Positions 26,700 to 62,445 are shown, counted from the first letter of the stretch. The stretch is DNA of 64,000 nucleotides from Tubulanus polymorphus (GCF_964204645.1 NC_134028.1:16871653-16935652), one strand, 5' to 3'. The notes: generated by a model not told the origin, from the letters alone. Numbers and translations: made by a program.

Positions 26700-26719
26700 T
26701 TATTTAGCAAAAAAAATTA

Positions 26720-27142: not shown

Positions 27143-27166
27143 TTATTTAGCAAAAAAATTATGCAT

Positions 27167-27388: not shown

Positions 27389-27404
27389 ATATTTATCAAA
27401 AAAA

Positions 27405-27745: not shown

Positions 27746-27761
27746 TTATATAATGAAAAAA

Positions 27762-28516: not shown

Positions 28517-28533
28517 TTATTTTACATATTTTC

Positions 28534-28887: not shown

Positions 28888-28916
28888 TTATAATACATAT
28901 TTTTATTAAAATTTGA

Positions 28917-29765: not shown

Positions 29766-29794
29766 TTATAATACATATTTTTATTAAAACTGAA

Positions 29795-33523: not shown

Positions 33524-33711
33524 TTTAATACTAAATTTTTTATTAAAATTGATTTTAGAAGTTATTCATTTATATTTTATTCATATATATATGAATATTT
33601 TAAGAGTAATAGGGAATAAGTTGTTTCATATCAAAGGTTGAAGTGGCGAGTGAGTAAAAAATAAAAAATAAATTCGAGTTTGCGAGAATTTATTTTTTAT
33701 TTTTTATGAGC
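33254..33711 (-). repeat. Right terminal inverted repeat, lacking the outermost ~45 bp
   Basis: Reverse complement of 15404-15858; similarity stops at ...ttttatgagc 33711. Confidence 0.92.
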
Positions 33712-38467: not shown

Positions 38468-38538
38468 CCACACACGCACGCGCACGCGCCCGCACACGCA
38501 CACGCACACGCACACACACACACACACATACACACACA
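38468..38538. repeat. (CA)n/(CACG)n microsatellite
   Basis: Direct inspection. Confidence 0.9.
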
Positions 38539-41519
38539 GTCCCTCGAATATTGGGTTTTCAATGTGCTATAGCCCATTGCATGCCATTCCACATGATAGA
38601 TAGAACGACCATTTGAGACCTGGGACTCAAGCACCAGCAGAGAATTCGGGGCACGACAGTCCTTATTGGGTCTTGTATAAACTTAAATAGCATACCGGTA
38701 TATCGGGTACCCGGTATATGATTTCGAGACCAACAGAACGGTGTGTTTCCTTTGTAATAGTCATCTCCATACACCCCCGATACACCACCAGCCTCGTACC
38801 CTCCGATACACCACGGGCCTCGCAAACAGCCGACGCTTTTCAAAAATACCGAACGCGAACGCCTAGCTACTCGATCAGGGACGTGCCACCTGCGACCGTA
38901 AAGCGACATGCCGCACCAATAATTGAATAACCCAAGACGCCATAATAAATGTTATTCTGCATTTAAGGGGGGGGGGGGAGTATCTAATTAGTCCGAATTG
39001 CAAACAGCAGCATTTTGTTCTGAGGCACAAATACGGTGATATTAAAGCAGTTGTGATTTTCTGTGTACGGGCCATTTGCAACAAGAACAAGTTTGAGTTT
39101 GGTCATATATGAGCTGTCCAATTTAAGTTGTTGTAAGCATAGCCCTTTGACAGTGAAATGCCACAATAATAACCACTGAGATAGTCTTAGCTAAAGGATT
39201 GCTTAATAGTTGTCGAATAAACACTATAATCCGTGTATACTGTAGATAAATGAAGAAATCCCACACTTCAAATTTAAAATTATACGATCAAATTTATTAC
39301 TATGAAACCACAGCCATCATCAGGTGGAATGACCAGAAAAACAAGTGTTTACGGTAGGCGGCCGCACTGAACCAGGCAGGTTTTTTCATGAAAGTTGCCC
39401 AGTAAACGGATTCAAACAAATCTAAATCTTCGATCCAATTGAACCATTTGTTTTCGATTTTGATGAAGTTTTGACTCAATAGTATCAATCGTATACCCGG
39501 TACCTAAGATGACATTTTCATAACCAGGCGGATCTAGGAAATTTGGAAGAAAAGAAAATGTATTTTTTAAAAAATTAGCTCTTATGGCCTCTAGAAAATT
39601 GGTCAAAGTGGTCAAAATTAGCTCTTATGGCCTCTAGAATTCATCTAAGATGTGAATATTTAATCACCAATCCCCGATGTCGGCTGTGTATCCTGATATT
39701 ACTGTACGGTACATAATTTTATATATATTCATATGGTAGACTTTACTTACCTATTGGGACCTATATGGTTTCATACTAAAAATTATATATTCCATAGATT
39801 TAACAGACTTATTGGGTGCCTCAAACTGCGGAAACATTATGTACAGGTCTATTGGGTCATCACCTTATGAGTCCCAAGTTTGAACTGCTTATTCAAATTA
39901 GTAAATTAAACATTATTTCGAGTCAAAGTTTAATTGTAGTGACGACCCAGAAGTGGTTCTAATCTCTTAAGAATTACAGTGATGGAGCTGTCGTCATAAT
40001 GACGATCACCTAATCGGATTTTACAATCTTAAAATTTCGTCTTGTACGTTTTCTGTAGCGCAGGTGATCAAGTCTTAGGATCAACTTCATTGTAACAAAT
40101 GATTTCAAATATCAGGAGCCCAATGCGTTTAATGATTCAATTAAATGGTATCTTGCTGATTGGATGAAAGTGGGGTAAATCATTTTATTGTGATTTTATT
40201 CTTTTTGAATTGGTCATTGGTGGTCAATGGTCAATTTATGAATCTTCAATAGCGAATCTTTTCTAGTTTCACACCAAACGCGGTATATCGTTCTCATCTT
40301 CGTGAAATTGTAATTCGTCAGTAGTGGTCAGTGTTGGTCAGCTTATGAATTTGCAATGATGAATCCTTGGTAGTTTGTAAACAAACATGGCTTGAGAAAT
40401 TTCCGATATTCGAAGTCTGAATCGTTCAGACTCGGGGATCATATCTCAATTGGTCAGTTTCTGACCATCTCGGTGTCAGCATTGTGGTCGATAGCTTATA
40501 TGAAACATTTGTAGATAACCAACGAAGGGGCCCAAAAGCACAAGCCAATTTCCAGTGATGTGATCCAAAAAATGCCCTACTGAAAAAAGCAGTCTCTCAA
40601 TTGGACGAAACCAAATCGCACAGGAATATTAATTTAGAAATTGTCGACTAGTAGCCACAGCGGTGGTTTTTTCTACGTAGTCTCTCATTTCATATCATAA
40701 GATTTCCCCCGTTTCAAACTGTCGAGTTTATGAGTCAATATTAAACAGACATATTGGGGCCCTCAGTAATAACTAATATATTTCTTTTGATATTTGTACC
40801 TATCTGTTTGGTCCATCAAACAGTTGGTTTTCTGTAGTAACTAATATATATCACATGATACATGATTGTACCGATCTATTGGGTCAAATATGGTCTTATA
40901 TCAAACTTATACATTCCGAATGTACCCATATGGAAGACTTTAATAGACCATTCAAAGTGGTTTCCTGTGAAATAATTGTTATATTTTCTGTTATCACGGT
41001 ACTGCATTGGCATAATCCAAGAGAATGGAAGGGATGTATGGATTCATGTAATATGGCATATTCAAGTGCCGCTGCATATCCACATGGAAACGATTGGCAA
41101 TGTGAGGATGTTCCTGCACTGTTCCTTCCTTTGAATTCACCAAATTACTAAATCAACTCAGCATAGTCATCAATATACATGTAGTTTATCCCTCAAAATC
41201 GAGCAGTGCTTGCGCATACACGTAGGCTAAGCTAGGCTAATTCCACTATGTCTTGTATTATCGAAACCTATATCAACCCCATCTGACAAAGTTTAAATCA
41301 AACTTTGTCAGAAGGGGTTGAGAATTGAATAGGTTTCAATTGTTTACATTGGCTAATCTGGATCAGTTCAATTTTGATCTCATGTTTGTCTGTACATCAA
41401 TGTATGTTAGGAAATTATCCAAGTTTAGCGCAGTCTTATGTGTATACGGTTCCTAGAAAAATCAAATCGATATTTGGGTAAAGCCTGTGAATCTAACACA
41501 AACACTTGGATTATACATC

Positions 41520-41717
41520 ATTATAAGTTTATTTGGAATCTTTCTCTTTTTAATAATGTTATTCACTCGTTCTAATCTGAAGTAGAGTTCTCTTTGTCAG
41601 CATTTTAGTGGCTTCGTCCAAAAGTTCACGATAAGCCATTCTGTTGGAACGAATGCAAGATCGTATGGAATATTTTTTCTTCTTCCGATGACCAGCGCCT
41701 TCGTGTTTTCATTCTGC
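41520..41717 (-). pseudogene. Decayed duplicate of the Myb/SANT-like terminal exon
   Basis: tttcttttaatag acceptor; RRRWSSEEEKIF...RELLDEATKMLTKRTLLQIR..VNNIIKKRKI parallels exon 46645-46859; frameshifted. Confidence 0.8.
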
Positions 41718-42569
41718 CTATTAAAAGAAAGAAAATTCATTTATTTCTATATTTGGTTTAGGCTAAAAAAGTGATACTTTGTTTCTCCGCAGCAGCCAGG
41801 AAATTGTGTAAATTCCAATAAAATTTATAATCAGTTCATTTCTATAGCTGCTGGGTCTGTAATTGTATGGCTGGTAGTGATAAAAAAAATAATGTACAGG
41901 GTAGATAGGCGGCAGGGTAAATTAACTTTAAGCTAGGCAGAGTGGAGAAACAATGTATCATTTTTTCCCTTAATTGACCAATTTGAATACATGACCTGTC
42001 AAACCATGTAAAACATACATGTACAGTCAGAGTGGCACTACTTGTTCAGGTACTTGAGCTATTTAAATTAACCTTTTTGAAAGTAAGCTACCTTGGTAGG
42101 GATATCAAAATTGTGACATTGAAACTCGGGAAGTGCACTATTTTTATATTGAACATCACCTCAGCCTGGCAGCATATCAAAAAAGGTATGACCTTTAAAT
42201 GTTATATATTCTTTATGATATACTAGTAACACTAAACTGCTTTCAAAAGTTATTACAGTTAATTTCAACCATTGATATTTAGCACTGCTTGGTGGCCATG
42301 ATGAATATGCATCCCTGTAAAACTTGATGTACATGTTAATTGGGACATAATCTGCAACTTTGCACTACATCATAATATTGAATTTCGACCAGAGAATAAT
42401 CTGAAGAATATGCATTGGTTATGTTTTAAATTACAATTGCTCATATGTGACCTTGAAACTCAGGACGGCCATCTTGCATCTGATTGACCCAATATTTCTC
42501 TCATGCTGATGCACCCTTCTGGTATACAATCTGATAGATCAAAATTTCCCTTGAAAACTTCAAAAATAA

Positions 42570-43200
42570 GCAAACAAGGGGTCCAGGGACACCATGCCCT
42601 CTTGGGAAGTAGTTTCAAATGCTCAACAACAACCCTGAATCTAACATGACCCTGAAACTCTCTGCAATCAATTAGAATATGTCAACAGCTACGATTTTGT
42701 AATTGATTGTGATAACAAAATATGCCTCGTTACCAATTTAATATGGAAATACTAAGTTATTCAATGCCCCTGGCAACCACATGCAAAACCCAATGACCTT
42801 GAAACTCACCACAATCATAGAACATGTCACGAACTACAACTTTGCAATTGATCATGGTAACAAAATATGCCTAGATACCAATCTAATAAGGAAATACTAT
42901 GTAATTCTACTATTCAACGCCCCCTGGTGACCATATAGAATAACTCATGTCCTTAAAACTCACCACATACATAGATGATGTCATGAGCTACAACTTCACA
43001 ATTGATTGTGGTTACAAAATATGCATAGGTACAAACATAATATAGAAATGCTAAGTTGTTGTATTATTTAACGCCCCCTGGTGGCCATATACAAAATCCG
43101 ATGACCTTGAAGCTTACCAAAATCATAGAACACGTTATGAGCTACAACTTTCCAATAGATTGTGGGAAAACAATATGTTTAGGTATCAATATAGTGTCGA
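42570..43200. repeat. ~154-bp tandem repeat, about 4 units
   Basis: atgaccttgaaactc-like motif recurs near 42646, 42793, 42947 and 43101. Confidence 0.8.
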
Positions 43201-43239
43201 AATTTGAAAATGTTGATAATTAATGGATAGGAGCACCCT

Positions 43240-45460
43240 TAATACGACCAGTCAAACTGCGCAGTTTTAATTAACCATCGTTTTTATATCCATTTTACAC
43301 TGTATTGAAGGATTGCCAAAAAGTTTTCATTTTCGCATGTTAACATGAGAAAAAATAAGCCATTTTTGAAATTCTAACAATATACGTCCTGAGTTTCCAT
43401 GCCTACGAACCATTGATTTGTGATGATTTGATTATAATTTCAAATGGTAGGCACGGAAACATATTGTTAAAATTGATTTACAGTCAACCCCCTATATACA
43501 ACATCTGGTAATATGAAGATCAAATTCAGGTATGTGTTCAAAAGTTTTAAAGAAATATCCCAAAAAATCGACTTTCGGTCTTAAGTCCCTAGTGGGCTAA
43601 AAAGGTATGAAATAACTAAACAGATTTACCGTCGGTTGCGCAAAGTTGACTCATATCTACCATAAGACTCTCTCTATGTGATTCAACTGCGGATTGATTG
43701 GAATCTTTCACACGACTCGTATTGATCTCGGTGGTCCATCTTCCTATGAAAATTGAAAATATCGACATGCATTAGCAATTGAGTAGTTGTTGAAATTGAG
43801 ACCAAAATTGACATTTTTGGGTACGAAAAAAGGTAACAGGACAGCCATCTTGCATCCGATTGACCCAAAATTTCCCTCATGCTGATGCACCCTTCTGGTA
43901 ATCTGATAGATCAAGGTAATTGATCAGTGTCTTCAAAATTCCCTTGAAAACTTCAAAAATGACTAGGAAAGTGCTGATTTCAGAGTAGAAAAATGGCCAC
44001 CAGTCAACCATGTTGATTCTGACCAAGCTCAGTTTTTGGGAAGAAGATGTATCTAGGGTAGATACATGTATATAAATATATTAAATCAATTACATTAATA
44101 TATTTCTACAAATGATATAGGGCCTATTACATTTTATAGATTGTACCTATCTATTGGGTCCATCAAACAGCTGGTTTCCTGTGTAATAACTAATACATTC
44201 CACATGATAGATTGTACCGACCTATTGGGCCCTTTGTCTTATCGTACATAATAATCCATATGACAGATTTACCAGACCAATCTAACTGTGGGTTTCCTGT
44301 GTTATAACAATACATTCTATCATGGATTTCCCTCAATTCGGGGATTCCTATGTAATGAATAATATACATTCAGTATGATAGACTTTATCAAACATAATGG
44401 GTCCTTCAAGGTGATTAGTTAGTACTTGGTGAAATACTGAACAATCTGGAAATGTCAAGAATCACCATTACCATAGGGCTTTTCATGCACTGGCACAACA
44501 TGCAATTGTTTGTGGTAACAACGTCATATGTCTAGGTACTAATATACTGTAGTACCATATTCTTCGGCTAATTTGCGCCACCGGTGAACATAAACAATAC
44601 CTAGAAACTCACCACAATCTTAGGGCAATTCATGTTAGAGCAAGTCATGAGGCCAAAATATTTACTGCGAATGAGAGAAATTGAGATAAATGATCGAAGC
44701 ATTCTCAATATTTCCCATGAAAACTAGAAAAACAATGTCTAAAAGTGCTGATTTCAAATTGTATCAGAATAACTGGATTCTGTCAAGCTTGGGACAAGTG
44801 ACACAAAGCGGATGCGATAACCCACTTTTAAGTCCATTCTTTTATGTGACATAGATATTTTTGGATATTTCGCTTAATGTTTTGAACACATACGTCTAAT
44901 TGGTTTTAATACGACCAGTGAAACTGTGCAGTTTTAATAAACCATCGTTTTTATATCCATTTTACACTGTATTGAAGGATTGCCAAAAAGTTTTCATTTT
45001 CGCATGTTGAAATGAGAAAAAATAAGCCATTTTTGAAATTCTAACAATATGCATCCTTAGTTTCCATGCCTACGAACTATTGATTTTTGATGATTTGATT
45101 ATAATTTCAAATGGTAGGCACGGAAACATATTGTTAAAATTGATTTACAGTCAACCCCCAATATACCAGTTTCACTGGCAGTATAGAGATCAAATTCAGG
45201 TACAAAAGATTTAGAGAAATATCCCAAATAATCGACTTTCCGTCTAAAGTCCCTAGTGGGCTAAAAAGGTATGAAATAACTTAACTGATTTACCGTCGGT
45301 TGCGGAAAGTTGACTCATATCTACCATAAGACTCTCTCTATGTGATTCAACTGCGGATTGATTGGAATCTTTCACACCAATTGTATCGAACTCGGTGGCC
45401 CATCTTCCTGTGAAAATTAGAAATATGAACATGCATAAGCAATTGAGTAGTGGTTGAAAT
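43240..45460. repeat. ~550-bp direct repeat pair (43240-43800 and 44905-45460)
   Basis: Near-identical text from taatacgaccagt through gactctctctatgtgattcaactgcggattg. Confidence 0.9.
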
Positions 45461-46644
45461 CATATGGTCAGAGGCTTTGCCATATGTCATGTATTGAATA
45501 AACGTCCATGGGTTTTCATAGTTAATATCTCCTAATACGAATCAGTTAAAATCGGATATCATGCTTGTCTAAGCTTACCGTACGCGAATTTTTGTTAGAC
45601 AGGTTGAGGCCATTTAAAAAAATGAAACAGTCTTTCTCATCACCATGCGCGTCAAAAAAAAAATCAGCGACGGAAATCGGATGACAGTCCATCAATGAGT
45701 ATTAACTTACATATTTCATATGAAAGACAGTACCGACCTTTTGGGTCCACCAAACTGTGTTTCCTGAGTAGTAACCAATCGGGTCCAATATGGTTACGTA
45801 TAAAAGTCATATATTCCATGATGCCGACGTTCGGTATAAAATGGCAATCATCTGTCAGACATGGCAGTATCTCTGAACCCATGGTGCAGTCAAGAGCTCC
45901 AGCAGTTGAAAATGGTATTTCCCTATTATCAAGGTCAGTTTTAACCGATTCAAACTCTACTTTTTTTCGAGGATATGCGTGGACATGCAATATATTCATT
46001 CCTATAGTTTAAATTTCGAGCATAACTTAGCGATTTACTTCAAAATTCTCCATTCTGCATTCTTCAAAATTTCAAATCTTTGAATAACAAGGTTGCAGGA
46101 GTTATCCAGAAAAACAGTGCATCATACACAGCACAGTTACAGGATACCTAGTCATTAACCTATAAAAACAAAACAGTTGCTGCTCTCTAGTGCATAATTT
46201 TTGGGGGAAAGAAAACTTTTTTCCTATCAATTGCAATGAACTGAAAAATTCATAATCAGTAATATTATCTAAATTTCATCAAAATCGAACAAAAATTCGC
46301 TAAATTAATACAACAGATTTTTTGGTAAAATCTTTATAACTGGAGCAATTTTGATTGAATACAAAAACACCTACAGAATCAGCATAATGTGATTGAGAAA
46401 GGTACTATGTTGAAAATGGTGTTAAAGAAATATGAAAAAAGTTTTCTCAACTTTGATACCGTCTGAAACTAGTGTCAGCCAGATGTGTTCCTGTACATAT
46501 TATAAACAAACGACGACAAGCTGAGTCGCTGGTGGGATGTGACCCACTGAAAATCTCACCACCGGATTTCAGATGCCTCTGAACGTCAGGTTTTAAGCCA
46601 ATGAATCTTACACAAATACTTGGATCATCCATCATCGTACACAT

Positions 46645-46859
46645 TTATTTTGAAATCTTTCTTTTTTTAATCATGTTACTGACGCGTGTTCTGATCTGTA
46701 AGAGAGTTCGTGTTTTCAGAACCTGCGTTGCTTTATCTAGAAGTTCGCGGTTCGGCATTTTATTGCAACGGATGCAACTATGAAAAATCTGTTGAAATGT
46801 GTCATCTTCTTCTGCCGACCATCGCCTTTTAGTACCGGTACCCTTAGATTTCGTTTTGC
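46645..46859 (-). CDS. Terminal exon, Myb/SANT-like domain of the SET-recombinase gene
   Basis: tttcttttaacag acceptor, phase 1; KRRWSAEEDDTFQQIF...KMPNRELL...RTLLQIRTRVSNMIKKRKISK*. Confidence 0.75.
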
Positions 46860-47576
46860 CTGTTAAAAGAAATAAAATTCATCCATTTTAATATTTTTTT
46901 TTGTATTTCAACAAAAAATTATTTTGTATTTAAACATAAATGAACATATGTTTAATTTCTGAAATCAAACAAATACCTAATTGTGATGGAATTTTTTAAG
47001 TTGTTTTTTTTTCATGGAATTTAAAATATTAAGCTATATCAATACTAAGATATTAAGCTACTCATGCAGCTGTGCACTCGGGCTAGTGTGTCAGGGTTTT
47101 GATAACGCGGCAATGTCGATGTCATCAAGTTTGAATCCCTGCCAAGGAGGATGAGTATGTGGTTCTAGCTAAATTTCATGTAAAAGGGCATATGATAATT
47201 TCAATAATACAACTATTCAATGGTCTTTGGTGGACATTCTAAGACAGTAACTAGGGGAATGTAGCTGGTGAATTATTCATTTAATCACGTCACACTCGAC
47301 AACATTGATAGAACATGTCACAGGCATATTTTTTTGCAATTTATGGTGTTATGATTTAAATTACGATTGCTCATATTTCAATATTCAGTGCTGGCTGAGA
47401 AACAAACGAAGAAATAGTAATTGTGGGTTTAAACGGGATCAATTTATATATTGATTTATTATCATTATTACTATTATCATTATTATTAATCTACCTTTTT
47501 ATTATTTATTCATGCGGTCTAACCAGGGATTGATTAACCGAAGTTAACTGAATATACAAATATGTATGTTACTTAC

Positions 47577-47624
47577 CAGTATCCACACATGTTGGACTTT
47601 TCGAAATGCATGGTTCATCTTCAA
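47577..47624 (-). pseudogene. 48-bp mini-exon copy with mutated acceptor (CAT)
   Basis: EDEPCISKSPTCVDT followed by G|gtaagt; flanks duplicate 50730-51060. Confidence 0.6.
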
Positions 47625-50600
47625 ATGAAAATAAATGAAAGAGATTGTAAGTGGGCTAAAATGGCATTAATTTATTTATTGATTTATCATTTATCCATTT
47701 TCTATCAATTCATTCATACGGTTTAACCATGAAACGATTAACCGAAGTTAACTGAATATACATATATGTAACTAACATGGTATTAGGTTTTGGATAACTA
47801 AATTATCCATCGGACCATTACACACACAAACCTATTAAGTCCCTTGAATATTGGCTTTTCTATGTTTTATATAGCCCATAGCATTTCATATGGTAGATAG
47901 AACAGAACACTTGAGAAACAAAAGTTCCACCAAATGCATGATGTAATTCCATATGACATATTGCACAGTTCTATTGGGTCTTACATAAAACTTATATATT
48001 CCATATGATAGATTTTAACAGATCAATCAAAAATGCTGTTTCCCTGTGTAATAACTAGTACATCCCAGGCTGTGTGTGCTTCCTGTGTAATAATGAATAT
48101 GCAATCAATATGATATACTTCTGCAGACTTATTGGGTTCCTGAGTGCGTGGGTATCCTGTATGATATCTAATACATTCCATATAGATAATTTGGACTTCA
48201 AAATGAGGTTTTGCTGTGTAATAACCAACATATTATAAATGGCAGATTTAAATCGATGTATAAAACTTTTTATATTGAATGAGTAACAACTTTTATACTG
48301 CATACCAAACTTTTGGGTCCATCAAACTGTAGGTTCCTTTGTAATAACTAATATATTCCACATGATGCATTGAACCAACTTTTTGGGTCCATCAAAGCGG
48401 GTGTTCCTATGAGTAATAACTACATATCGAATACATTTAATTCATCATAGATTGTATAGAACTGTTGGGTATATCAAACTGGGGAGTTCCTAATACTGTC
48501 ATGATCATACAGCCACCAATTTATTATTACCTTGATAACCAGTGAACGATTTACTGAACGCAAGTGAATATTTATATATTTCTCAACTTACATCTCTATG
48601 CAGTATACATAGTAAAACACCCCCGATATTCCACCACATATTTATGGTTTCTGCTGCTTTCGCAGAAACCCTCTTGTAATATTTCAGTTGATTATTATTA
48701 TTATAAATGGTCCACTTTCCAGCCAAAAATTTTTCATAAACTGTAACTCCTCTCAGATTCTACTACCAACAGCTTATAAACGTAATTTTAAATTCTGTCA
48801 GAAATATAACTCAGCGCCTGACCATTTCGAATTTGCGTATAGTAATCTATTATGAATTAATCCCGCATAATTACCGGGTCTAAACAGCGACAAGAATAAC
48901 GCAAAGAATCGTCATCCATTGATAAAAGTGCACCCCGAAAAGCCTAAAATTTACTGCCTTGAGCTTCAAAGTCAACCGTAAATCCGGATCCGTCATTTCC
49001 CACGAACGATAACTACAGCCGGTGCGTAATAAGTGTCTTATGAATGAAACATGGCGGATGGTTGAAATCATTTTCGGCTTAAATTTATCGCGAGTTTTAG
49101 GACCTTATAATGAATTTCACGAAACCATGATCCTTAAAATGAGTCAATTGGTTAATTCTATTTGTAAATCAATTTACGTTGGCTACATTTCCGGAAGATT
49201 TCTGACTCGATTCAACGTAATATGGACAGAAATGGTAGGAATTTCATACGGAATTTCAATTCCGCGTTCACTCAACGACTCAGATCGATGACAACGACAG
49301 CAGATTTTACGTAATTTAAGGTGAGAATCCGTTAACCAGGGAATGTTTTACATGATCTCTTTATAATATTAGTAGATATGGTAGCAAATGAGTACTTGGT
49401 GAAGCAATGATCATTGTTGGTTAGCTACTTTACCTAGCTTTTTCTTTACACCTAGAATAGGCCCTAAATCAAAATGTAGTGAATAGAGACAGTGGAAAGC
49501 CTAAGTTGTTAGTAAGGGGCTGGTTTACACTTATGTGTATGACTATTTATTTCGATTTCTTTCCAGCTATTAATCGTGGAATGAACTGGTCACTACGGTC
49601 TTCAATTCCGTTGCCGACTCTTGCAGCTGGTGGAAATAAATTTAAACCACAGTGTGCAAGTGTACGTTCCAAATCAAGCTTTTTCATCATTGTCGTAACT
49701 TAAGCGCAATTGTCTCAGATGCTGTAAGTACTTGACGTTTTATGTAATTGATATTTTTTCAGTTGCCATGTTTACAATATTTGGATATGTAATCAGTTAT
49801 ACTTTCTTTCACTCCTCAATGATATTATATAACCGAGTAATTATTAGATTTCATTGCTTAATTACAGGTGGAAAGAGGTCAGATGGCATGAAAATCGACT
49901 GTGGCTGACTTATGGGTGCGATTAGATCAGGCGTTGATGTTTCAAAAGGTGTTGCCAAAAAGCTTGTATCATCAGGGGGTAGACAAATATCCGAAAATAA
50001 ATAAAAACTTCACCTCGTTGATCATCAGTTGATTTTGCTGTAATTTTTTTCGCCTGGATAAATCAACACGTCATTCAGTTCAAAATATGTGTTCAGCAGA
50101 ATTTCTTTCAATAAAATTACAATTTAATTGACTTATTTTTATGTATTCAAGATTGAAATTGAATGGATCTTAAAACCAGAGAAAGCATTCTTCAGAAAAT
50201 CCTAGACTCATAATCAAATTCTGTGAAGTCAAGGTCTTTTGCTTGAATCAAGCCGAGGGCTCAGATGGCTAAAATTCAATTCCTCAATGCCCTATAATGC
50301 AGAGTACGATAAAGTTTACACACTGAAAAACGTTGGGCTGTGTAAGTGTAATTTGGACGTTCAAGTTGATACAACTGCCGGCACCGGGGAACCATATCTT
50401 CGGCATCCTCAAAGCCATTTTGATTAGAATTGGTACATCAGTACTTTTTACATGGTAGCCCTTTAGGATCCACATAATCCAGCATATTGTTGACCCAGGT
50501 TGGGCTTCTTGGAAATAGTCCTATGTTACGGACGGATTTGAGTAATTTCTATGAAATCATTTTTACGCTTCCCATTGCAACATACGAACCAGTTAGGCAG

Positions 50601-50653
50601 AAACCCGTTATCGCTGCTATGCAGCTATATTTTTGTATATAGTTGTAACTTAC

Positions 50654-51114
50654 CAGTATCTATACACGTTTGACTTTCTGAACCGTTTGTTTCATTTTCA
50701 ACTGAAAAATGATTGGAAGAAATTGTAGGTGGGCTGAAACGGGATCAATTTATATATTGATTTATAATAATTATTATCATTATCATTATTATCTATTTAT
50801 CTTTTATCATTCATTCATGCTGTTTAACCGGGGATTGATTAACCAAAGTAAACTGAATATACAAATATGTATCTAAATATGTATGTAACTTACCAATATC
50901 CACACGTGTTAAACTTTTTGAAATGCATGGTTCATCTTCAACTGAAAATAAATAAAATGAATCGTAGGGAGGCTAAAACCACATCAATTTATTTACTAAT
51001 TTATCCATTTTCTATAAATTCATTCATACGGTTTAAGTTAACTGAACATACATATAAGTAACTCACCAGTATCCAAACAGATTTCCAGACTTGAACTGCA
51101 TGGTTCATCTTCAA
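50654..51114 (-). CDS. Three tandem 48-bp phase-1 mini-exons (50654-50701, 50894-50941, 51067-51114)
   Basis: ttttcag|TTGAARATGAA...GATAYTG|gtaagt; peptides ENETNGSESQTCIDT, EDEPCISKSLTRVDI, EDEPCSSSLEICLDT; the last has a CAA acceptor. Confidence 0.65.
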
Positions 51115-51358
51115 TTGAAAATAAATGAAAGAAACTGTAGTATGAACCCTAAACGCTCAATTCAAGACGAAAATAGACAAGAGGCCCATGGGCCTTGAAG
51201 CATTGGTAGATTATACTGCGGTATTAAGTGGTTATAATGTTTTACATCTGCCGGCAAATCTTCTATAACGATGTTGATTGGGAGGACCACAGACTTAAAG
51301 GTCTATTTGTCTAGTACGATTTTATCCCTGAAAATGAATCTATTTTCTGCCGATCAAT

Positions 51359-51447
51359 TTAGCCGGTAGGACTCGAACCCACTTGTAACTCAGCATTGAT
51401 AGTGGATTCAATAGCATCACGCCTTATCTCACTGAGCTACCGAGGCC
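51359..51447 (-). mobile_element. tRNA-derived SINE head
   Basis: Minus strand GGTAGCTCAGTGAG (A box) and GGTTCGAGTCC (B box); no valid cloverleaf seen. Confidence 0.65.
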
Positions 51448-51923
51448 GCTCAATTCAATTCCAAAAAAACTACAGCAGCGGCAAATAACCATCGCTATAT
51501 TGCAATTTACGACAAACAACGCGTAAATTCAATCACTGTTGTTTAACGCATGGAAAAGATGATAAAAGGTATTTTTTCCCGGCGCGCATTACAAAGCGAA
51601 TCTCTACCGAGTGCGTAAGAAAGTGCTACCGCCTTATTAGTGTGCAGCAGGCGGATAGGGCGCCCTAAAAAGAAAACTTATATTAGAATATAGCCGAATA
51701 CCGTTAGATGTTTCGTGTCATCATGAAATGGTTTTAACTTTAGTAAAGGCGTTCCCGCACGATCACATACGGGTTTCAGTCTCGAGTAGGCTGCCGTTCC
51801 ACTGCTCTAGAAATACGTATTCTGACGCTGAGAATTAAGCGTAAAGTTAACCATAGTTAACAAACTAAAATTGGTCAATAAACAAAATTTTCAGTTTTGC
51901 GAAGCGACTAATCGCATCAATAC

Positions 51924-52203
51924 CTGTGAAACAGTAGCAATGTATTTTCGGAGAGAGGTTGAACATATCCTTTCTGGATAACTTATATTTGGACACGAAG
52001 TCACGATTTCTTTCAGTTCTGTATTTCCAGTGAAGGGAGTGATCGCATTTGGCCGCGCAAACACATATGCGTTAGCTTTCAGGATCCCGACAGTATCTCT
52101 CTTAGCATTCAAAATATCTATAGCAGACTTCGCCTCTGGTGGCAATAAAATGAAACTTTCAACATTTTTCCTTGATTTACCAGCGCATACCACCATATCC
52201 ATT
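51924..52203 (-). CDS. Tyrosine-recombinase catalytic-domain exon
   Basis: 80-bp GT-AG intron 52204-52283; MVVCAGKSRK...YVFARP...ICSTSLRKYIATVSQ|gtattg (K and HxxR-equivalent motifs). Confidence 0.75.
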
Positions 52204-52283
52204 CTAGTGAGCAAAAAAAACAATTATATGAAGTAAAGGTCATCATATTGGCTAAACATATAATCAACCTAAATAGCTCATAC

Positions 52284-55200
52284 CTTTTGGCTAGTAAAAT
52301 GTCCATTGGTTTTAAAGATGACTTCATTTCATCATTCATTATTTGATGCCATTTTGGACGATTCAGATATTCACACAGTTTTAAATCTTTCACTTCCGCT
52401 CTTCGCCTTTTATTAAATAATATCAGTCGAGACATAGTGACCTTTGCCAGATCCACCCAGGTTTTCTTATCCAGAGTGCTTAGTAAGAGTTTGGACTTCT
52501 CCCTCATTTTTTCAATCATGAAATCTCTTAGTAGCTTCAGATCATTTGTAACCGGAATCAACGGTACTTTTTTCATCTTTTCTTTGACGATTTTCTTGGT
52601 TCCGACAGAATTCACACGGAAGTTCCACTCTGATTCAAAAAGAAGCTTAAATGCTTTGGCTTTTTCACATTGGTTATTTCCATCTTCTAATCTCAAATAC
52701 ATGCCAATTTTAATCAAAATTACATGGCTCAAAATATTTCCGATATAGCTACACAGCGAAAATGCTTGTTTTTCTTTCGAAAATGCCAATGACTTAGTGG
52801 TTTTAACAACTAGGTCAAATTTTGCCGGATCAATCAGTTTATTTAACGTAATGTTGGCTTCATGTTTACATGCTTCTTGGACTAACCGAGCCAATGTGCG
52901 TGCACAAGCACTTACCCGATGCATGTCGTTTAATTTCCTATCATCTCTATCACCGAGCGATTCGACTCGTAGACTGGAATATCTCCTAATAAGTTCGTCA
53001 TTCATTACAATCTCCTTTATGCCATCGTCTCTCATACGCTCCAGCATTTGCGCTAGAAATTGGTCACTTTCATTATTATTTCCAAAGACTGAACTTAAGA
53101 GTAGTGACCTGCCTCTTCTTACGGCATTCGCTGATCTAGCTTCTTCAGTGCCATTATCTATATCTCTTTGAATAGATAAGTGTCTTAAGGCTGCTTCACA
53201 TCGCTTAACATGCAACCACAGTGTTGATTTATGTATAAACTTTTTACAGTATTCGCAGGTATTCATGTGGTGGTCCTTGACCTTTATCACGAGACGATCG
53301 ACGGGCGATAACAAGGTAACCATTTCCTGTTTCGAGCACTTCACAATTGTGGTTAAAATTACCCTCATTTGCAAGCATATTTAGCTGAAAAATCCGTTCT
53401 TTCGACTGCTTCGGCATTAATAGGATGCTGTATACTCTTGGTTGATCTTTGTGAGCAGCGAGTAAGTGGCGCGATATCTTACTCTTTATTCCTTTTTTAC
53501 AGAATACACAATAGCTAACTTTATCATATACCTGTTTCTTCCCAGGTTTTACTTTGTTTTTTTCAGAGATTGATACTTTAGCAGGGGAAGTAGGCTTGAC
53601 CTTAGCGCAAATACTATGCGATAGGTGATCCATTGATGGTTCTAGTGGGAATTTAGATACATCAAGAAAAGGAATAACATCAGATTCAGCATCTGAAATC
53701 GAACTGTCTTCCATATCTTCACTGTCATTGGAAAAGTCATCTACGTTAAAATCTGAGTCATTCTCATCTGAAGGCGAGGAATCCAAGTCGTTGTTATTAA
53801 AATCAATCTCATCAGTATCAATGGAGGGTTCTTCTGCAGGGAGTTGAATGGGTTCCACCACAAGACTTGCTTTGCAGGTGTCAACTGGGAAAGGAAGACA
53901 TGATTCTTTCGTACAACTGTTTTCACAGGCGTCAACTAAGGAAACTGGACAGGATTCTACCAAATGACTGTCATCGCAGGGCTCAACTGCAGGAAGGTGA
54001 CAGGATTCTAGCTTAAGCCGCTTTTTGGAGGGCTCAACTGTGGAAAGTTCACAGGATTCAACCAGACGACTGTGTTTGCAGGCCATAACTGCAGCAAGTT
54101 TACAAGAATCTACCATATGACCTTCTCCACAGGCGTCAACGGATCGAACTTGACAATATTCTACCATACGACTGTCTTTGCAGGCCGTATCTGCAGGCGA
54201 TTGACATGATTCTTCCATAGGACTGTCGTTGTAGTCTGCTACTGCGGGAAGGTGACAATAATCTACCATACGACTGTCTTTGCAGGCTGTAACTGCAGGC
54301 GATGGACACAATTCTACCATACGACTGTTTTTGCAGTCTGCTACTGCTGGAAGCTGATAATAATCTACCATACGACTGTCGTTGGAGGTGCAGTCAGCTA
54401 CTGCTGGAAGTTGACAAAATTCTACCATGCGACTGTCCTTGCAGGCCGTAACTGCAGGCGGTGGACATGATTCTTCCATACGACTGTTTTTGCAGTCCGC
54501 TACTGCTGGAAGCTGACAAAATTCTACCATAGGACTGTCTTTGCAGAGTGTAACTGCAGGCAATTGACACAATTCTACCATACAACTGTTTTTGCAGTCC
54601 GCTACTGCTGGAAGCTGACAATATTCTACCATAGGACTGTCTTTGCAGAGTGTAACTGCAGGCAATTGACATGATTCTTCCATACAACTGTCTTTGCAGT
54701 CTTCTACTGCTGGACGTTGACAAAATTCTTCCATGCAACAGTACTTGCAGGCCGTAACAGAAGAAAGTTGACAAGGATCTACCATACAACCTCCTTCGCA
54801 GGCGTCAACGGATGGAACTTGACAAGATTCTACCATACGACTGTCTTTGCAGGCTGTAACTGCAGCCGATGGACACAATTCTACCATACGACTGTTTTTG
54901 CCATCTGCTACTGCTGGACATTGATAAGGTTCTACCATACGACTGTCTTTATAGGCCGTAACTGCAGGCGATTGACACAATTCTACCACACGACTGTTTT
55001 GCCATCTGCTCCTGCTGGACGTTGATAAGGTTCTACCATACGACTGTCTTTATAGGCCGTAACTGCAGGCGATTGACACAATTCTACCTTAGAACTGTTT
55101 TTGCCATCTGCTACTGCTGGACGTTGATAAGGTTCTACAATTCGACTGTCTTTGCAATCTGTAACTGCAGGCGGTGGACACGATTCTTCCATAGGACATT

Positions 55201-58200
55201 TTTTGCATGCAGTGACTGCATGAAGCAGATATGATTCTTCCATACGACTGTTTTTGCAGTCTGCTACTGCTGGAAGCTGACAATATTCTACCATAGGGCT
55301 ATCTTTGCAGGGTGTAACTGCAGGCAATTGACACAATTCTACCATACAAGTGTTTTTGCAGGCTGTTACTGCTGGAAGCTGACAATATTCTACCATAGAA
55401 CTGTCTGTGCAGGCTGTTACTGCAGGCGGTTGACATGATTCTCCCATACGACTGTCTTTGGAGTCTTCTACTGCTGGACGTTGACAAATTTCTCCCACGC
55501 GACTGTCCTTGCAGGCCGTAACAGAAGAAAGTTGACAAGGATCTACCATTCGACCTTCTTCGCAGGCGTCAACAGATGGAACTTGACAAGATTCTACCAT
55601 ACAACTGTTTTTGCAGGCCGTAACTGCAGGCGATGGACACAATTCTACCATACGACTGTTTTTGCATGCAGTAATTGCAGGAAGCTGATATGATTCTTCC
55701 ATACGACTGTTTTTGCAGTCAGCTACTGCTGGAAGTTGACAATATTCTACCATACGACTGTCTTTGCAGGCTCTAACTGCAGGCCATGGACACAATTCTA
55801 CCATACGACTGTTTTTGCCATCTGCTACTGCTGGACATTGATAAGGTTCTACCATATGACTGTCTTTGCAGGCTGTAACTGCAGGCGATGGACACAATTC
55901 TACCATATGACTGTTTTTGCCATCTGCTACTGCTGGAAGCTGACAATATTCTACCATAGGACTGTCTTTGCAGGCTGTAACTGCAGGCAATTGACACAAT
56001 TCTAACATACAACTGTTTTTGCCATCTGCTACTGCTGGACGTTGATAAGGTTCTACCATACGACTGTCTTTGCAGGCTGTTACTGCAGGCGATGGACCCG
56101 ATTCTTCCATAGGACTGTTTTTGCATGCAGTAACTGCAGGAAGCTGATATGATTCTTCCATACGACTGTTTTTGCAGTTAGCTACTGCTGGAAGTTGACA
56201 AAATTCTACCATGCAACTGTCCTTGCAGGCCGTAACAGCAGGAAGTTGACAAGACTCTACCATACGACTGTTTTTGCCATCTGCTACTGCTTGACATTGA
56301 TAAGGTTCTACCATATGACTGTCTTTGCAGGCTGTAACTGCAGGCGATGGACACAATTCTACCATATGACTGTTTTTGCCATCTGCTACTGCTGGAAGCT
56401 GACAATATTCTACCATAGGACTGTCTTTGCAGGCTGTAACTGCAGGCAATTGACACAATTCTAACATACAACTGTTTTTGCCATCTGCTACTGCTGGACG
56501 TTGATAAGGTTCTACCATACGACTGTCTTTGCAGGCTGTTACTGCAGGCGATGGACACGATTCTTCCATAGGACTGTTTATGCATGCAGTAACTGCAGGA
56601 AGCTGATATGATTCTTCCATACGACTGTTTTTGCAGTTAGCTACTGCTGGAAGTTGACAAAATTCTACCATGCAACTGTCCTTGCAGGCCGTAACAGCAG
56701 GAAGTTGACAAGACTCTACCATACGACTGTTTTTGCCATCTGCTACTGCTTGACATTGATAAGGTTCTACCATACGACTGTCTTTGCAGGCTGTAACTGC
56801 AGGCAATGGACACAATTCTATCATACGACTGTTTTTGCCATCTGTTACTGCTGGACGTTGATAAGGTTCTACCATACGACTGTCTTTGCAGGCTGTTACT
56901 GCAGGCGATGGACACGATTCTTCCATACGACTGTTTTTACTGTCAGTAACTGCAGGAAGCTGATATGATTCTTCCATACGACTGTTTTTGCAGTCTGCTA
57001 CTGCTGTAAGCTGATAATATTCTACCAGAGGACTGTCTGTGCAGGCTGTTACTGCAGGCAATTGACACAATTCTACCATACAACTGTTTTTGCAGGCTGT
57101 TGCTGCTGGAAGCTGACAATATTCTAACATACGACTGTCTTTGCAGGCTGTAACTGCAGGCGATTGACATGATTCTTCCATACGACTGTCTTTGCAGTCA
57201 GCTACTGCTGGAAGTTGACAAAATTCTACCATACGACTGTTTTTGCACGCAGTAACTGCAGGAAGCTGATATGATTCTTCCATACCATTGTCTTTGCAGT
57301 CTTCTACTGCTGGAAGTTGACAAAATTCAACCATGTGAATGTCCTTGCTGGCATAAACGGATGGAAGTCGATAATATTCTACCATAGGACTGTCTTTGCA
57401 GGCTGTAACTGCAGGCATTTGACACAATTCTACCATACGACTGTCTTTGCAGGCTGTAACTGCATCCGGTGGACATGATTCTTCCATACGACTGTTTTTG
57501 CCATCTGCTACTGCTGGACGTTGATAAGGTTCTACCATACGACTGTCTTTGCTGGCTGTTACTGCAGGCGGTGGACACGATTCTTCCATAGGAATGTTTT
57601 TGCACGCAGTAACTGCAGGATGCTGATATGATTCTTCCATACGACTGTTTTTGCAGTCAGCTACTGCTGGAAGTTGACAAAATTCAACCATGCGACTGTC
57701 TTTGCAGGCCGTAACAGCAGGAAATGGACAAGACTCTACCATACGACTGTTTTTGCCATCTGCTACTGCTGGACATTGATAAGGTTCTACCATACGACTG
57801 TTTTTGCAGGCCGTAACTGCAAGCGATTGACATGATTCTTCCATACGACTGTCGTTGCAGTCTGCTATTGCTCGAAGCTGACAATATTCTACCATACGAC
57901 TGGCTTTGCAGGCCGTAACTGCAGGCGATGGACATGATTCTACCATACAACTGTTTTTGTCACCTGCTACTGCTGGACATTGATAAGGTTCTACCATACA
58001 ACTGTCTTTGCAGACTGGTACTGCAGGCGGTGGATTAGGTTCTTCCGTAGGACTGTTTTTGCACGCAGAAACTGCAGGAAGCAGATATGATTCTTCCAAA
58101 CGACTGTTTTTGCAGTCAGCTACTGCTGGAAGTTGACAAAATTCGACCATGCGACTGTCTTTGCAGGCCGTAACAGCAGGAAGTTGACAAGAATCTACCA

Positions 58201-59971
58201 AACGACCTTCTCCACAGGCGTCAACGGAGGGAACTTGACAAGAATCTACCATATGACTGTCTTTGCAGGCGGTAACTGCAGGCGATTGACATGATTCTAC
58301 CATACGACTGTTTTTGCAGTCTGCTACTGCTGGACGTTGATAAGGTTCTACCATACAACTGTGTTTGCAGACTGGTACTGCAGGCGATGGATCAGATTCT
58401 TCCATAGGACTGTTTTTGCAGTCTGCTACTGCTGGAAGCTGACAATAATCTACCATACGACTGTTTTTGCACGCAGTAACTGCAGGAAGAAAATATGATT
58501 CTTCCATACGACTGTTTTTGCAGTCTGCTACTGCTGGAAGCTGACAATATTCTACCATAGGACTGTCTGTGCAGGTTGTAACTGCAGGCGATGGACACAA
58601 TTCTACCATACGACTGTTTTTGCCATCTGCTACTGCTGGACGTTGATAAGGTTCTACCATATGACTGTCTTTGCAGGCTCTTACTGCAGGCGGTGGATGG
58701 GATTCTTTCATAGGACTGTTTTTGCAGTCAGCTTCTGCTGGAAGTTGACAAAATTCGACCATGCGACTGTCTTTGCAGGCCGTAACAGCAGGAAGTTGAC
58801 AAGAATCTACCAAACGACCTTCTCCACAGGCGTCAATGGACGGAACTTGACCAGAATCTACCATATGACTGTCTTTGCAGGCCCTAACTGCAGGCGATTG
58901 ACATGATTCTTCCATACGACTGTTTTTGCAGTCAGCTACTGCTGGAAGTTGACAATATTCGACCATACGGCTGTCTCTGCAGGCTGTAACTGCAGGCGGT
59001 TGACATGATTCTTCAATAGTATCGTCTTTGAAGGCCATAACCGCACGAAGATGACAAGATTCTACCATACGACCTTCTCCACATGCGTTAACAGAAAGAA
59101 TGTGAGAAGATTCAATCAGACTGTTTTTGCAGGTCTCAGCCAAAACATCGGGGAGTTCGCAGGGTTTTTCCATACAAGTACTTTTGCAGTCAGCTACTGC
59201 TGGAAACTGACAATATTCAACCATAGGACTGTCTGTGCAGGCTGTTACTGCAGGCGGTTGACATGATTCTTCCATACGACTGTCTTTGCAGTCTGCTACT
59301 GCTGGAAGCTGACAATATTCTACCATAGGACTGTCTGTGCAGTCTGTTACTGCAGGCGGTTGACATGATTCTTCCATACGACTGTTTTTGCAGTCTGCTA
59401 CTGCTGGAAGCTGACAATATTCTACCATAGGACTGTCTGTGCAGGCTGTTACTGCAGGCGGTTGACATGATTCTTCCATACGACTGTCTGTGCAGTCTGT
59501 TACTGCAGGCGGTTGACATGATTCTTCAATAGTATCGTCTTTGAAGGCCATAACCGCACGAAGATGACAAGATTCTACCATACGACCTTCTCCACATGCG
59601 TTAACAGAAAGAATGTGAGAAGATTCAATCAGACTGTTTTTGCAGGTCTCAGCCAAAACATCGGGGAGTTCGCAGGGTTTTTCCATACAAGTACTTTTGC
59701 AGTCTGCTCCTGCTGGGTGTTGACAAGATTCTACCATACCACTTACTCCACAGGCGCGAACTGACAGAAGTTGACAGGATTCAACTCTTAAACCGTTTTT
59801 GCAGGCTTCAACAGCGGGAAGATAAGAGGATTCAACCATATGACCTTCTCTCCAGGCGTCGACGGACGGACTGTTTTTACAGGCCGTAACTGCAGAATCT
59901 TGGCGGGATTGTACTGTATCATTCTCTCTGGAGGGCTGAACCGAGGAACAAACTCTTGGTGGTCCCTCTAC
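52284..59971 (-). pseudogene. 7.7-kb exon: Cys-rich 17-aa repeats, acidic linker, zinc fingers, tyrosine-recombinase N-terminal part; two frameshifts
   Basis: Acceptor ttgatag|GTAGAG in frame with ORF 54983..59839; CVFC..ISRHLLAAH, GNFNHN, CEYC..HVKRC, LILFNKRRRAEV; frame changes near 54990 and 53258. Confidence 0.8.
53850..59900 (-). repeat. 51-bp coding tandem repeat (MVEYCQLPAVTACKDSR), roughly 115 units
   Basis: Visible array; higher-order periods of 459 bp (55736/56195/56654) and 513 bp (59051/59564). Confidence 0.95.
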
Positions 59972-61777
59972 CTATCAATATTACAGATATCAAAATGCAT
60001 AAGAAATCGGGTAGTAGTTTAAGTGTACGTACGTACATGGCAGTGAATAAATAATTAAAAGGTTATAGTAAGCAATTATATGGATTTCCCAAGTTCCCAG
60101 GGGGTCCACGGGCCTCGAGTTTGTATAATTCATTAACACAAGGAAGGAGGCGTAGACCTTGGTTTCCTGAAACTGTGAAACTCCTTCAATGTATTGTTAT
60201 ACGGTCCTGCAAGCAGCTGTCAATTTGCTGACTGAAAACCCCCTCAGACAATCACTGTTCGGACTTCGAAATCCGGGTGAACACATTTTTTGCAAATGGT
60301 GAATGGATGATCTTGTTTTGGGAAAATGCATACAGGCGGCAGGTTGATAGCTTCATTAGTTTCTAGTTCTCACATCTGATGCTGCAACTAATATGGTAAA
60401 CTCGATATGATAAATAGTCTATTATAAACCAGACTGTTCCTTGTAAAATCGTTATATATTTCTATATGAAACTGATTTACAGACATGTTGGGTCTTTCAA
60501 ATTAAGTATTTAGATATCTATATGTTCCGCATACATAATTACCATAGTAAATATAGGCCTATACAGTCAAACCCTGTAAGGACGATTCGGGTTTTAACAA
60601 AACCTTAGAGATACGATGAAGTACATAAGGCCCCAAGAGGCAAAATGTCAACATTCGCTTTTCATAAACGATGCAATCTGTGGGTTACATTCGTCAAAGA
60701 ATACACTCCTGGCACAATTGTGTTTTACACAGTACAATTGTGTTTTATAAGTACCGTAACAGTACTACCGAAGACAGGGAGATGGCAAGAACGAATACCT
60801 CAGATCAATATTTTGCATTTGTCATGGAATGTGGAATAAAATTAATTTGAATTTAGTGTAATTTTTTCCAATAAAATAAAACTCAATTTGATTATTTTTG
60901 TTCAATAATATAAAAATTGACTTGGATTTTATATTTTTTGCCGTAGGTTGAATTTGCAATTCGAGCACATAGAAAATTTGTATAACAAGTTTCCACTGTA
61001 TTGGAAGCATCAAACTCATATGCACTACATGAGAGATCAATACTCAATTGGACCGCAATATTGGTAGTCAATGATGTTTAATAGCCCAGTATTTTCCATA
61101 TCAGAGATAGAAATAACCATGGGAATTTGAAAAAAAAGCCCTTTTGGGTCCCTCAAACTGCGGATTTCCCTATGTTCAACAACTAATACATTCCCTATGC
61201 CTTTTTTTAATAGCTTGGTTTACGGGATAGACCAATTAAAATATTCTTTTGGCGGAGGAAATAAAAAAAAAATTCCCTCAGTGAGATAAAATCACTTTTT
61301 GAAGGAAGAGGGAACTGTCGATAGGGCAATATACCTATGTCCAAACACAAATGATTCTTGGAAAGTTCTAATTTTGCACACTGTGATAGAAAAAGAAGCT
61401 TGTTCCACAGACGGGAATAAAAATTTTATTTGACTTTTCTTCAAATTTAGGGAGCCAAGCTATTAAAAAAAGGCATTATTATAGATTGTGCAGATTTATT
61501 GGGTCCCTAAGACTGAGACTAATAAATACATATTGGGCCCCTGGACTGTAGGAATCAAATACTTTAGATCAATCCTCCGAACACAATGCACAATTTATCC
61601 TGAATTAAATTAAAACTCTACAATACAAACTAGATCACGTAACTGGGTTGATTGTGAAGGTGTGTGGTGCGTGTTTGTGAACGTGATCTTTTGACAAACC
61701 TTCAGTTCAAATTAGTAAGTGAGGCTGTAAAGGCTAAAACATTTGTCACAAAATAGTTGAAAAGATGTGTTTTTTAC

Positions 61778-61821
61778 CTTGCTATAACTTCTTTTCACAG
61801 AACCACGAAGACTTTGTCTTC
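61778..61821 (-). CDS. 44-bp linker exon (GRQSLRGSVKRSYSK)
   Basis: tttttag acceptor, AAG|gtaaaa donor; phase 1 to 0 exactly bridges the SET exon and the giant exon. Confidence 0.7.
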
Positions 61822-61826
61822 CTAAA

Positions 61827-61892
61827 AACAAACAAACAAACAAACAAACAAACAAACAAACAAACAAACAAACAAACAAACAAATAAACAAA
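61827..61892. repeat. (AAAC)n microsatellite
   Basis: Direct inspection; forms the T-rich tract before the minus-strand acceptor. Confidence 0.95.
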
Positions 61893-62239
61893 TGCGTGTA
61901 TCAATGAAGTATATACCAGGGCCTGTTTGTGTAGCCCTAGTTAATGAACCAAGATCATGAGGCACCAGTGAAGTATTTTTTACACATGTCACCTTGTTAG
62001 CAAAAGTTCTGGTAATACTTCTGAATGTTTTCTTTTACCTATTGGCCAAGATTAATAGTACAGCCATGATTTGTCTTTAAATTGTTGCCTTTGTGGATTT
62101 TTGATATTGAGATATAAAACAAGACAAGTTTTAAGTATGGCAATTCTGTATGTTGGCTGCATGAGACATATCAATCTGAGGTTGCACTGACACATGCCCA
62201 TTAGAGAATAAACATTTACTCGTCAGACATTATACATAC

Positions 62240-62445
62240 CACAGGAACTACTTTTTCGCCAAAGTAGATTTGGCGCGTTATAGTTGTATCTTATCTCATC
62301 ACCGATGTTGATGTCACCTTTAGCCATTATTGCAAGACAAATGGTCTGCTTGTGTTCGACAGCAACTACCTTCGAATTTTCTGTCTCACGAGGCCAGGCG
62401 TCGTTGACAAACTTCCCCAAACTATTGATATTCGTGGCATCAATA
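62240..62445 (-). CDS. SET domain C-terminal half (SETD8/KMT5A-like)
   Basis: ttctttctcctag acceptor; IDATNINSLGKFVNDA...AKGDINIGDEIRYNY...LLWR matches SET motifs DAT..GRxxNH and GEELxYDY; G|gtatgt donor. Confidence 0.85.

Follow-up and report, generated by a model that had tools for sequence, protein, structure and literature searches.

CryptonV is the name given in PMC5753468 and PMC4455052, in the parts of these papers available, to a class of recombinase transposons from cnidarians, some families of which insert in microsatellites (Kapitonov and Jurka 2012, Repbase Reports 12:2034, cited in the available text of PMC8869645). CryptonA, F, I, and S are recombinase elements with introns and without reverse transcriptase or long terminal inverted repeats (PMC3212892 and PMC13465315, in part), and CryptonF carries a C-terminal DNA-binding domain (Kojima and Jurka 2011, PMC3212892, in part). 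Recombinases of endogenous nimaviruses have a C2H2 domain and target telomere repeats and 28S (Kawato et al. 2023, PMC10871703, in part). In this study, we analyzed a stretch of 64,000 nucleotides (nt) from Tubulanus polymorphus (GCF_964204645.1 NC_134028.1:16871653-16935652), referred to as the window, in which positions are counted from the first letter. An earlier note on this DNA had taken up positions 41520-62445 as a giant spliced gene on the minus strand. We have good confidence that the locus is a copy, in this case broken, of a tyrosine-recombinase DNA transposon encoding a SETD8-like SET domain, a spacer, two predicted zinc fingers, a recombinase, and a helix-turn-helix domain. The gene and its lesions consist of the following features.

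62240-62445, minus strand: SET exon of 206 nt that runs from phase 2 to 1 and encodes the C-terminal half of a SETD8/KMT5A-like SET domain
61778-61821, minus strand: predicted linker exon, 44 nt, with AG/GT ends and phase continuity
52284-59971, minus strand: large exon, 7,688 nt, with the repeat spacer, an acidic stretch, two zinc fingers, a helical core-binding domain, the first catalytic Arg, and two frameshifts
53948-59586, minus strand: spacer minisatellite, about 110 copies of a 51-nt unit (TRF)
54997-55000, minus strand: first frameshift, one base short in an A-run, either a lesion or an assembly error
53190-53520 (approximate), minus strand: two predicted zinc fingers, of C2H2 and C2HC type, with Cys/His columns invariant or nearly so
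53254-53258, minus strand: second frameshift, located between the two zinc fingers, where five bases are lost; particular to this copy or to the assembly
51924-52203, minus strand: recombinase exon, 280 nt, ending in phase 0, with the GK lysine and the second arginine in STSLRK
48676-51849, no strand: region occupied largely by high-copy inserts and lacking the remainder of the intron as well as the exon(s) for the catalytic His/Tyr
51114-51067, 50941-50894, and 50701-50654, minus strand: three 48-nt mini-exons, the first without an AG acceptor
47577-47624, minus strand: fourth 48-nt mini-exon, with a non-AG acceptor
46645-46859, minus strand: intact last exon, a three-helix helix-turn-helix (Myb/homeodomain-like) and the stop codon
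41520-41717, minus strand: second, frameshifted copy of the last exon, 69% identical to the intact exon in nucleotides, with several indels

All four exons from SET to recombinase are bounded by AG/GT and have phases that fit together, in agreement with the GT-AG chain that the earlier note had drawn from the SET half-domain to the recombinase exon. The final 324 amino acids of the large exon and the recombinase exon are 48% and 63% identical, respectively, to the homologous protein P0003. The N-terminal half of the SET domain was not found in the window (best profile E 9), and the N-terminal SET exons fall outside it. Several details of the note required correction. The RRRAEV motif, which had been placed in the recombinase exon, is at 52408-52391 inside the large exon, and the proposed gene end at 41520 is the end of the frameshifted last-exon copy, the intact last exon being that at 46859-46645. 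The predicted mini-exons are present as four 48-nt units, two of them with AG acceptors and two with AA or AT at this position.

The gene is not intact at these coordinates, and one expanded minisatellite accounts for most of its length. Translation of the large exon as written stops at 54983; the two frameshifts cancel each other, and therefore the phase of this exon had looked consistent. At the second frameshift, five more letters were present in 36 of 41 raw reads of X5 and in contigs of X1, X2, and X4. A six-frame search of the window did not recover the catalytic GH..H...Y segment, the best E value being 0.18 by tblastn and 1.3 with a 27-sequence profile. Of the related loci, all 12 in which 3.1 kb or more follows the preceding exon have the corresponding exon. 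Candidate remnants at 49668-49603 and 47144-47112 (E 0.35 and 0.18) were rejected, as the 27-sequence profile recovered neither. The "phase gap" noted beyond the recombinase exon corresponds to the missing catalytic exon. The depth of X5 reads was about 370-650 over most of 48.5-52 kb versus 22-30 on the exons, and 33 X5 reads as well as X1 and X2 contigs left the window at 51850-51851, with a continuation not found in the window. Such a broken copy could not act alone and would need a partner in trans. A tRNA-like head of a short interspersed nuclear element was seen by eye at 51370-51450, inside a high-copy insert, and was called by neither ARAGORN nor Rfam; ARAGORN called no tRNA, and Rfam gave no meaningful match over 38-64 kb (one match, E=0.09, inside the spacer repeat).

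The recombinase was assigned by motif and predicted fold. The catalytic R, K, and second R are present in the window copy, and the complete R/K/R/H/Y set was found in 29 of 184 homologous proteins, many of the others ending at an intron. As a proxy for the fold we used P0072, which is 43% and 54% identical to the large and recombinase exons of the window and was modeled with a mean predicted local distance difference test score (pLDDT) of 81.5. Its best match in Foldseek was XerH (E=8e-4), with XerA, Cre, and Tn1549 integrase also matched. Alignment to XerH by VIA gave Z=12.8 and a root-mean-square deviation of 6.1 over 276 aligned residues, and rows 1-36 of 50 were all recombinases or integrases. 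In the Atlas, the structure of P0072 matched Phage_integrase clusters at template modeling (TM) scores of 0.49-0.58, and a 482-member cluster, 99% of which have a SET domain, shares the recombinase fold at TM 0.64. These results place the family in the tyrosine recombinase superfamily by modeled fold, with core-binding and catalytic domains, as the note had proposed. Sequence searches of the PDB with the recombinase profile matched no recombinase, and a viral fold search returned generic integrases and VLF-1 only. Scans of IMG/VR contigs yielded 7 and 30 pattern-matching stretches, none of which was confirmed as a relative.

The SET half-domain at 62445-62240, with ND in place of NH as the note had reported, matched Pfam SET (E=0.003) and scored 47.8 bits with a profile of related SET halves. 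It is closest in identity (51%) to P0205, a hydrozoan SET-recombinase protein; searched alone against the PDB, the window SET half gave no SET match. Among solved structures, the SET domain of P0034 was nearest to KMT5A (E=7e-22; next family 5e-12), and the EY, YF, LGRL.N, and YDYG positions of the family align with those of SETD8/KMT5A, which is in keeping with the SETD8-like assignment. The family domain differs from SETD8/KMT5A in its fusion to a recombinase and at the position after the Asn, where SETD8/KMT5A has His and the family usually has Asp. ND was found in the window, in six of the eight SET-recombinase proteins with the motif printed, and in all three loci, with NH in P0033; being family-wide, the change is not a sign of decay. 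SET domains such as that of PRDM9 are active without this histidine, so ND is compatible with either an active or an inactive domain. The phase-2 acceptor position of the SET exon was the same in all three related loci checked. Element-type SETD8-like halves also occurred with zf-DBF (PF07535) or Ulp1 protease (PF02902) in 17 of 43 matches (P0186-P0225). These proteins may represent longer N-termini of the family or other SET-bearing transposons.

As the earlier note had noticed, the Cys-rich part of the large exon is a tandem repeat, in which each unit encodes a 17-amino-acid Cys-containing repeat. No stop occurred in 62 in-register units, compared with a mean of 19.7 under a simple null that ignores the shared ancestry of the units. 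The spacers of homologues are tandem repeats unrelated in sequence, and therefore only the presence of a spacer is conserved. A Pfam match of the spacer to DAHP-synthase was rejected as a repeat artefact with no passing stretch. Matches of the predicted zinc fingers in the PDB were weak (E 0.03-0.7).

The intact last exon matched the family profile (E=6.5e-11), and its model has three helices (pLDDT 85). Pfam Myb matched it at E=0.02 and was weak in four of nine family members. The nearest profiles were TBF1, Trf1, and c-Myb, all at E of at least 0.04; Foldseek favored homeodomain-like matches, none at E<=0.001, and the window exon alone had no relevant match in the PDB by sequence. Thus, of the Myb/SANT-like domain announced for the last exon, the three-helix helix-turn-helix stands, and the matches are too weak to favor the Myb over the homeodomain type.

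Homologues were numerous in animals. The 324 amino acids before the 80-nt intron retrieved 27 long homologues among 7,173 candidates, and the family comprised 1,840 clusters at 50% identity (E<=0.001). A search seeded with the brittle-star protein P0027 gave 16 long homologues from echinoderms, corals, and a fish, 7 of which had Pfam SET. The SET domain, zinc fingers, and recombinase occur together in one protein in hydrozoans, corals, echinoderms, and fish. Among 186 recombinase-core proteins, the C-half of SET was found in 13, of which 6 have the last domain as well; many of the 186 are single-exon gene calls or fragments, and 13 of 186 is not a frequency. From 153 confirmed metagenome stretches we kept 80 loci, one of which (L038) has the SET C-half, spacer, and core in one stop-free frame of 1,483 codons. 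The fusion of SET and recombinase therefore recurs across phyla, in one protein or one frame. Intron positions were also shared: 38 of 43 loci have an intron after the core, 23 of 32 have one following the second recombinase exon, and in all 3 loci checked an intron precedes (I/V/L/Y)DA. The family had no model in the copy of Pfam searched, and its genes are consequently annotated as uncharacterized proteins.

In a quick tree, from which P0031 was dropped and in which the P0012 and P0140 rows were poorly filled, the window fell in a 23-row clade (Shimodaira-Hasegawa-like approximate likelihood ratio test, SH-aLRT, 100) that includes oyster proteins and five rows bearing SET. Three other branches also have SET-bearing rows, and loci L074 and L077 were sister to coral SET-recombinase proteins (SH-aLRT 97). 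Labels for SET and for microsatellite ends were not clustered beyond shuffles in this tree, in which unlabeled rows are often fragments. In locus L002 (1844-4418), an exon for the last domain is upstream of the recombinase core, and protein P0139 has repeated SET-recombinase units; this order and these repeats suggest head-to-tail tandem insertion.

In T. polymorphus itself, the depth of raw X5 reads was 22-30 on the recombinase exons versus 2-6 at 47483-48480, an intronic stretch. Taking the low depth as single copy, this suggests several near-identical copies in the species. Short pieces that are roughly 88-93% related over 51869-52123 continue into different sequence, in one case similar to the spacer repeat, as would internally deleted derivatives; 13 of their 23 listed changes were synonymous, counted from 40 of 71 rows of variants. 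The depth difference and the variant pieces in reads agree with the multi-copy status expected from the note. In contigs of X4, the 80-nt intron from 52284 to 52203 is spliced, and another contig leaves 51924 as I-L-D-M-A, the start of the missing exon (compare ILDMT in oyster). These GT-AG joints were absent from X5, X1, and X2 and were found in one contig per joint. Since the splicing seen leads into the catalytic exon that the window lacks, expression of another copy is probable, and the species probably holds a small, young family in which at least one copy is spliced and has the catalytic exon. An additional X4 contig has a GT-AG skip of 286 nt (52630-52915) in the large exon, which shifts the frame and removes the catalytic domain, and which is possibly a regulatory or repressor isoform. 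A placement of 288 extra contig letters past 51869 was dropped, as the letters run beyond 53940.

Ends were recognized in related loci. L074 and L077 are alike for about 5 kb past the last exon, with 90% identity over the final 150 nt, and end at the same point in (GTAA)n, after which their flanks differ. L078 ends at (GT)n, and L046, the only complete unit, is 5.8 kb long with (GT)n at both sides and no terminal inverted repeat. The background in these loci was 0.08 microsatellite tracts of at least 20 nt per kb. These four loci thus end in microsatellites, which such relatives likely target, and the paralogues L074 and L077 share an end and not its flank, in support of mobility. In the window, the motif GACCCAAWAR occurred 10 times against 0.59 expected, always on the minus strand and always within 38663-61505; two of the occurrences, at 61505 and 61150, are inside the SET-side intron. 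Since the motif series stops just before a GT-rich tract, 38539 is a candidate right end, by analogy with the above loci, either of the element or of a tandem non-autonomous relative. Three features belong to this side of the gene.

38469-38538, no strand: microsatellite, GT-rich on the minus strand, next to the right end proposed from the resemblance to L046, L074, L077, and L078
38539-42517, minus strand: higher-copy block that holds the broken last exon and whose left limit is the candidate element end
47838-47988, minus strand: diverged copy of the candidate right-end sequence in the last intron (nhmmer E=1.6e-7; 75% identity)

The higher-copy block had an X5 depth of 77-395 per bin over 39000-42492, with X1 contigs at a depth of 460-550, and is likely a non-autonomous relative or a tandem 3' end. 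The diverged copy is possibly an older nested element end.

Several points weigh against the transposon interpretation. Copy number is read from a depth ratio without a genome size, and among near-identical copies only 4 of 10 listed changes were synonymous, in the same 40 rows. Splicing was seen in two single contigs (depth 10.6 and 5.7) of X4, a run of unrecorded kind, and the junctions between the SET, linker, and large exons are predicted. A microsatellite end was found in only three of the eight loci with a last-exon match, plus L046; of the remaining five, three had no more than 1.5 kb downstream and two were ambiguous. L046, L074, L077, and L078 are all outside the clade of the window, and L046 has no SET match. 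The GACCCAAWAR motif was picked after looking, the right end at 38539 is placed by analogy only, and copies, empty sites, and the left end rest outside the single 64-kb window. In addition, the histidine of HxxR is replaced by S, N, K, or R throughout the family.

Three other explanations were weighed. The locus could be an intact, expressed element whose frameshifts and missing exon are assembly errors, that is, indels and a mis-join at a high-copy repeat. The first frameshift is one base in an A-run, the five letters at the second are restored in most X5 reads and in three contig sets, and 51850, the point at which most reads depart from the window, is also the start of a high-copy repeat. 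However, a loss of five bases is atypical of homopolymer error, non-canonical acceptors are also found at two of the four mini-exons, and nowhere in the 64 kb does the catalytic exon occur. Some X5 reads share the window alleles at 52244, 52674, and 53092, the pattern expected if the window shows one of several copies. We regard this explanation as unlikely. Still less probable, and in our view very doubtful, is that a host chromatin gene, present in one copy, arose here by domestication of a recombinase element, as ZMYM and KCTD1 did from CryptonA. The conserved intron positions, the splicing, and the open spacer would suit such a gene, and the loss of the catalytic exon parallels the catalytic loss in DUF3504 genes (PMC3212892, in part). 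Nevertheless, the exon depth is several times that of the neighboring stretch, truncated or rearranged relatives occur in the same species, the spliced form keeps the catalytic exon, the full catalytic set is kept in the 29 homologous proteins, paralogues end at microsatellites, and, with the frame lost at 55000, translation would end ahead of every DNA-binding domain.

The SET exon might also belong to a neighboring gene or to another transposon and not be spliced to the recombinase, given that the junctions are predicted and that similar SET halves occur with zf-DBF or Ulp1. We consider this highly improbable in view of the phase-compatible GT-AG path, the identical acceptor position in three loci, and the element-associated motif found twice in the intron. 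In addition, SET and core are in one frame in L038, P0019, P0059, and P0215, of which L038 and P0019 are in the clade of the window. A broken copy of a tyrosine-recombinase transposon carrying its own SET domain hence remains the preferred interpretation, and the fold, the recurring fusion, the copies, and the ends bear out the suggestion of the note that the locus represents the core gene of a family of animal mobile elements about which little has been described.

L074 and L077, which have microsatellite ends, group as sister to coral SET-recombinases; the family is therefore probably identical with CryptonV, overlapping with it, or a sister group of it. Compared by description only, from sources available in part, it resembles CryptonV in being a likely tyrosine-recombinase DNA transposon with, in L046, L074, L077, and L078, ends in microsatellites; it differs in that those descriptions mention no SET, zinc-finger, or helix-turn-helix domains, which Repbase entries may record. 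With CryptonA, F, I, and S it shares a recombinase gene apparently without reverse transcriptase, the lack of long terminal inverted repeats (in L046), and introns, and with CryptonF a C-terminal DNA-binding domain, as far as the available parts of PMC3212892 and PMC13465315 describe these groups. No long open reading frame (ORF) besides those of the gene itself was found in 38.5-64 kb, a region for which no reverse-transcriptase profile search was made. The family differs from these four groups in its N-terminal SET domain, spacer, zinc fingers, microsatellite ends, and replaced HxxR histidine. DUF3504, GCR1_C, and DUF3435 (CryptonA/CryptonF/Starship) gave no Pfam match in 5 window ORFs or 42 homologues, and one Atlas feature matched NDC10_II at the 0.90 floor. 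The nimavirus recombinases, compared by description only, may be relatives; unlike the present family, they are carried by large viral genomes, and no SET domain is mentioned in the available parts of PMC10871703. A literature search, with Repbase Reports and subscription journals outside its coverage, found no description of a SET-recombinase transposon. A SET fusion is likewise not described in the available parts of PMC13465315, PMC5753468, PMC6681497, PMC10288648, PMC9004415, PMC8502044, PMC13465017, PMC4455052, and bioRxiv 2024.03.05.582530.

By analogy with Crypton and integrase biology, intact copies would bind the repeated subterminal motifs. Following the Crypton model (PMC3212892, in part), they would be excised as a circle through phosphotyrosine strand exchange and reintegrate at a short repeat, here a GT-containing microsatellite, without terminal inverted repeats. 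The SET domain was probably captured from host SETD8 together with its intron, and it could methylate H4K20 or another lysine near the element, keeping the element or its target accessible. The countering of silencing and the marking of target sites that the note had proposed would be putative roles of the same domain. The spacer would be a putative length-tolerant tether, and the last domain a putative reader of the target. More tentatively, animal-wide microsatellite-targeting recombinase transposons may have captured SETD8 early and kept it active, so that the integrating enzyme would mark its own copies or targets while a telobox-like C-terminal domain reads the repeat; we rate this extended scenario as possible and rather unlikely.

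A transposase fused to a chromatin writer would offer a direct, testable route for a transposon to set its own chromatin state, and repeat-specific animal recombinases are of interest as site-specific integration enzymes. With a family of this very large size, some database genes modeled as 'KMT5A-like' may be element-borne SET exons. What limits the surprise is that Repbase probably has a name for the element class already and that the copy studied here is broken.

Additionally, we found other repeats in the window. The intervals 42646-43193, 43239-43796, and 44906-45460 hold a 154-bp tandem array, covered very deeply by reads (about 7,000), and two copies of a 560-bp element that are 91% identical. 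A minisatellite with a 25-bp unit and higher-order periods of 50, 75, and 100 bp is located at 8683-10109. An 18-kb, low-GC element of Polinton/Maverick type at 15522-33590 has identical inverted repeats of 337 nt, ORFs for a protein-primed PolB (E=7e-16) and an rve integrase, and stops in several of its ORFs, and appears to lie inside a palindromic miniature inverted-repeat transposable element (15447-15529 / 33585-33667). The same block contains a 439-nt inverted duplication with 84% identity (16282-16720 and 29079-29517) and a repeated AT-rich motif of about 30 nt, which ends near the ATG upstream of several ORFs.

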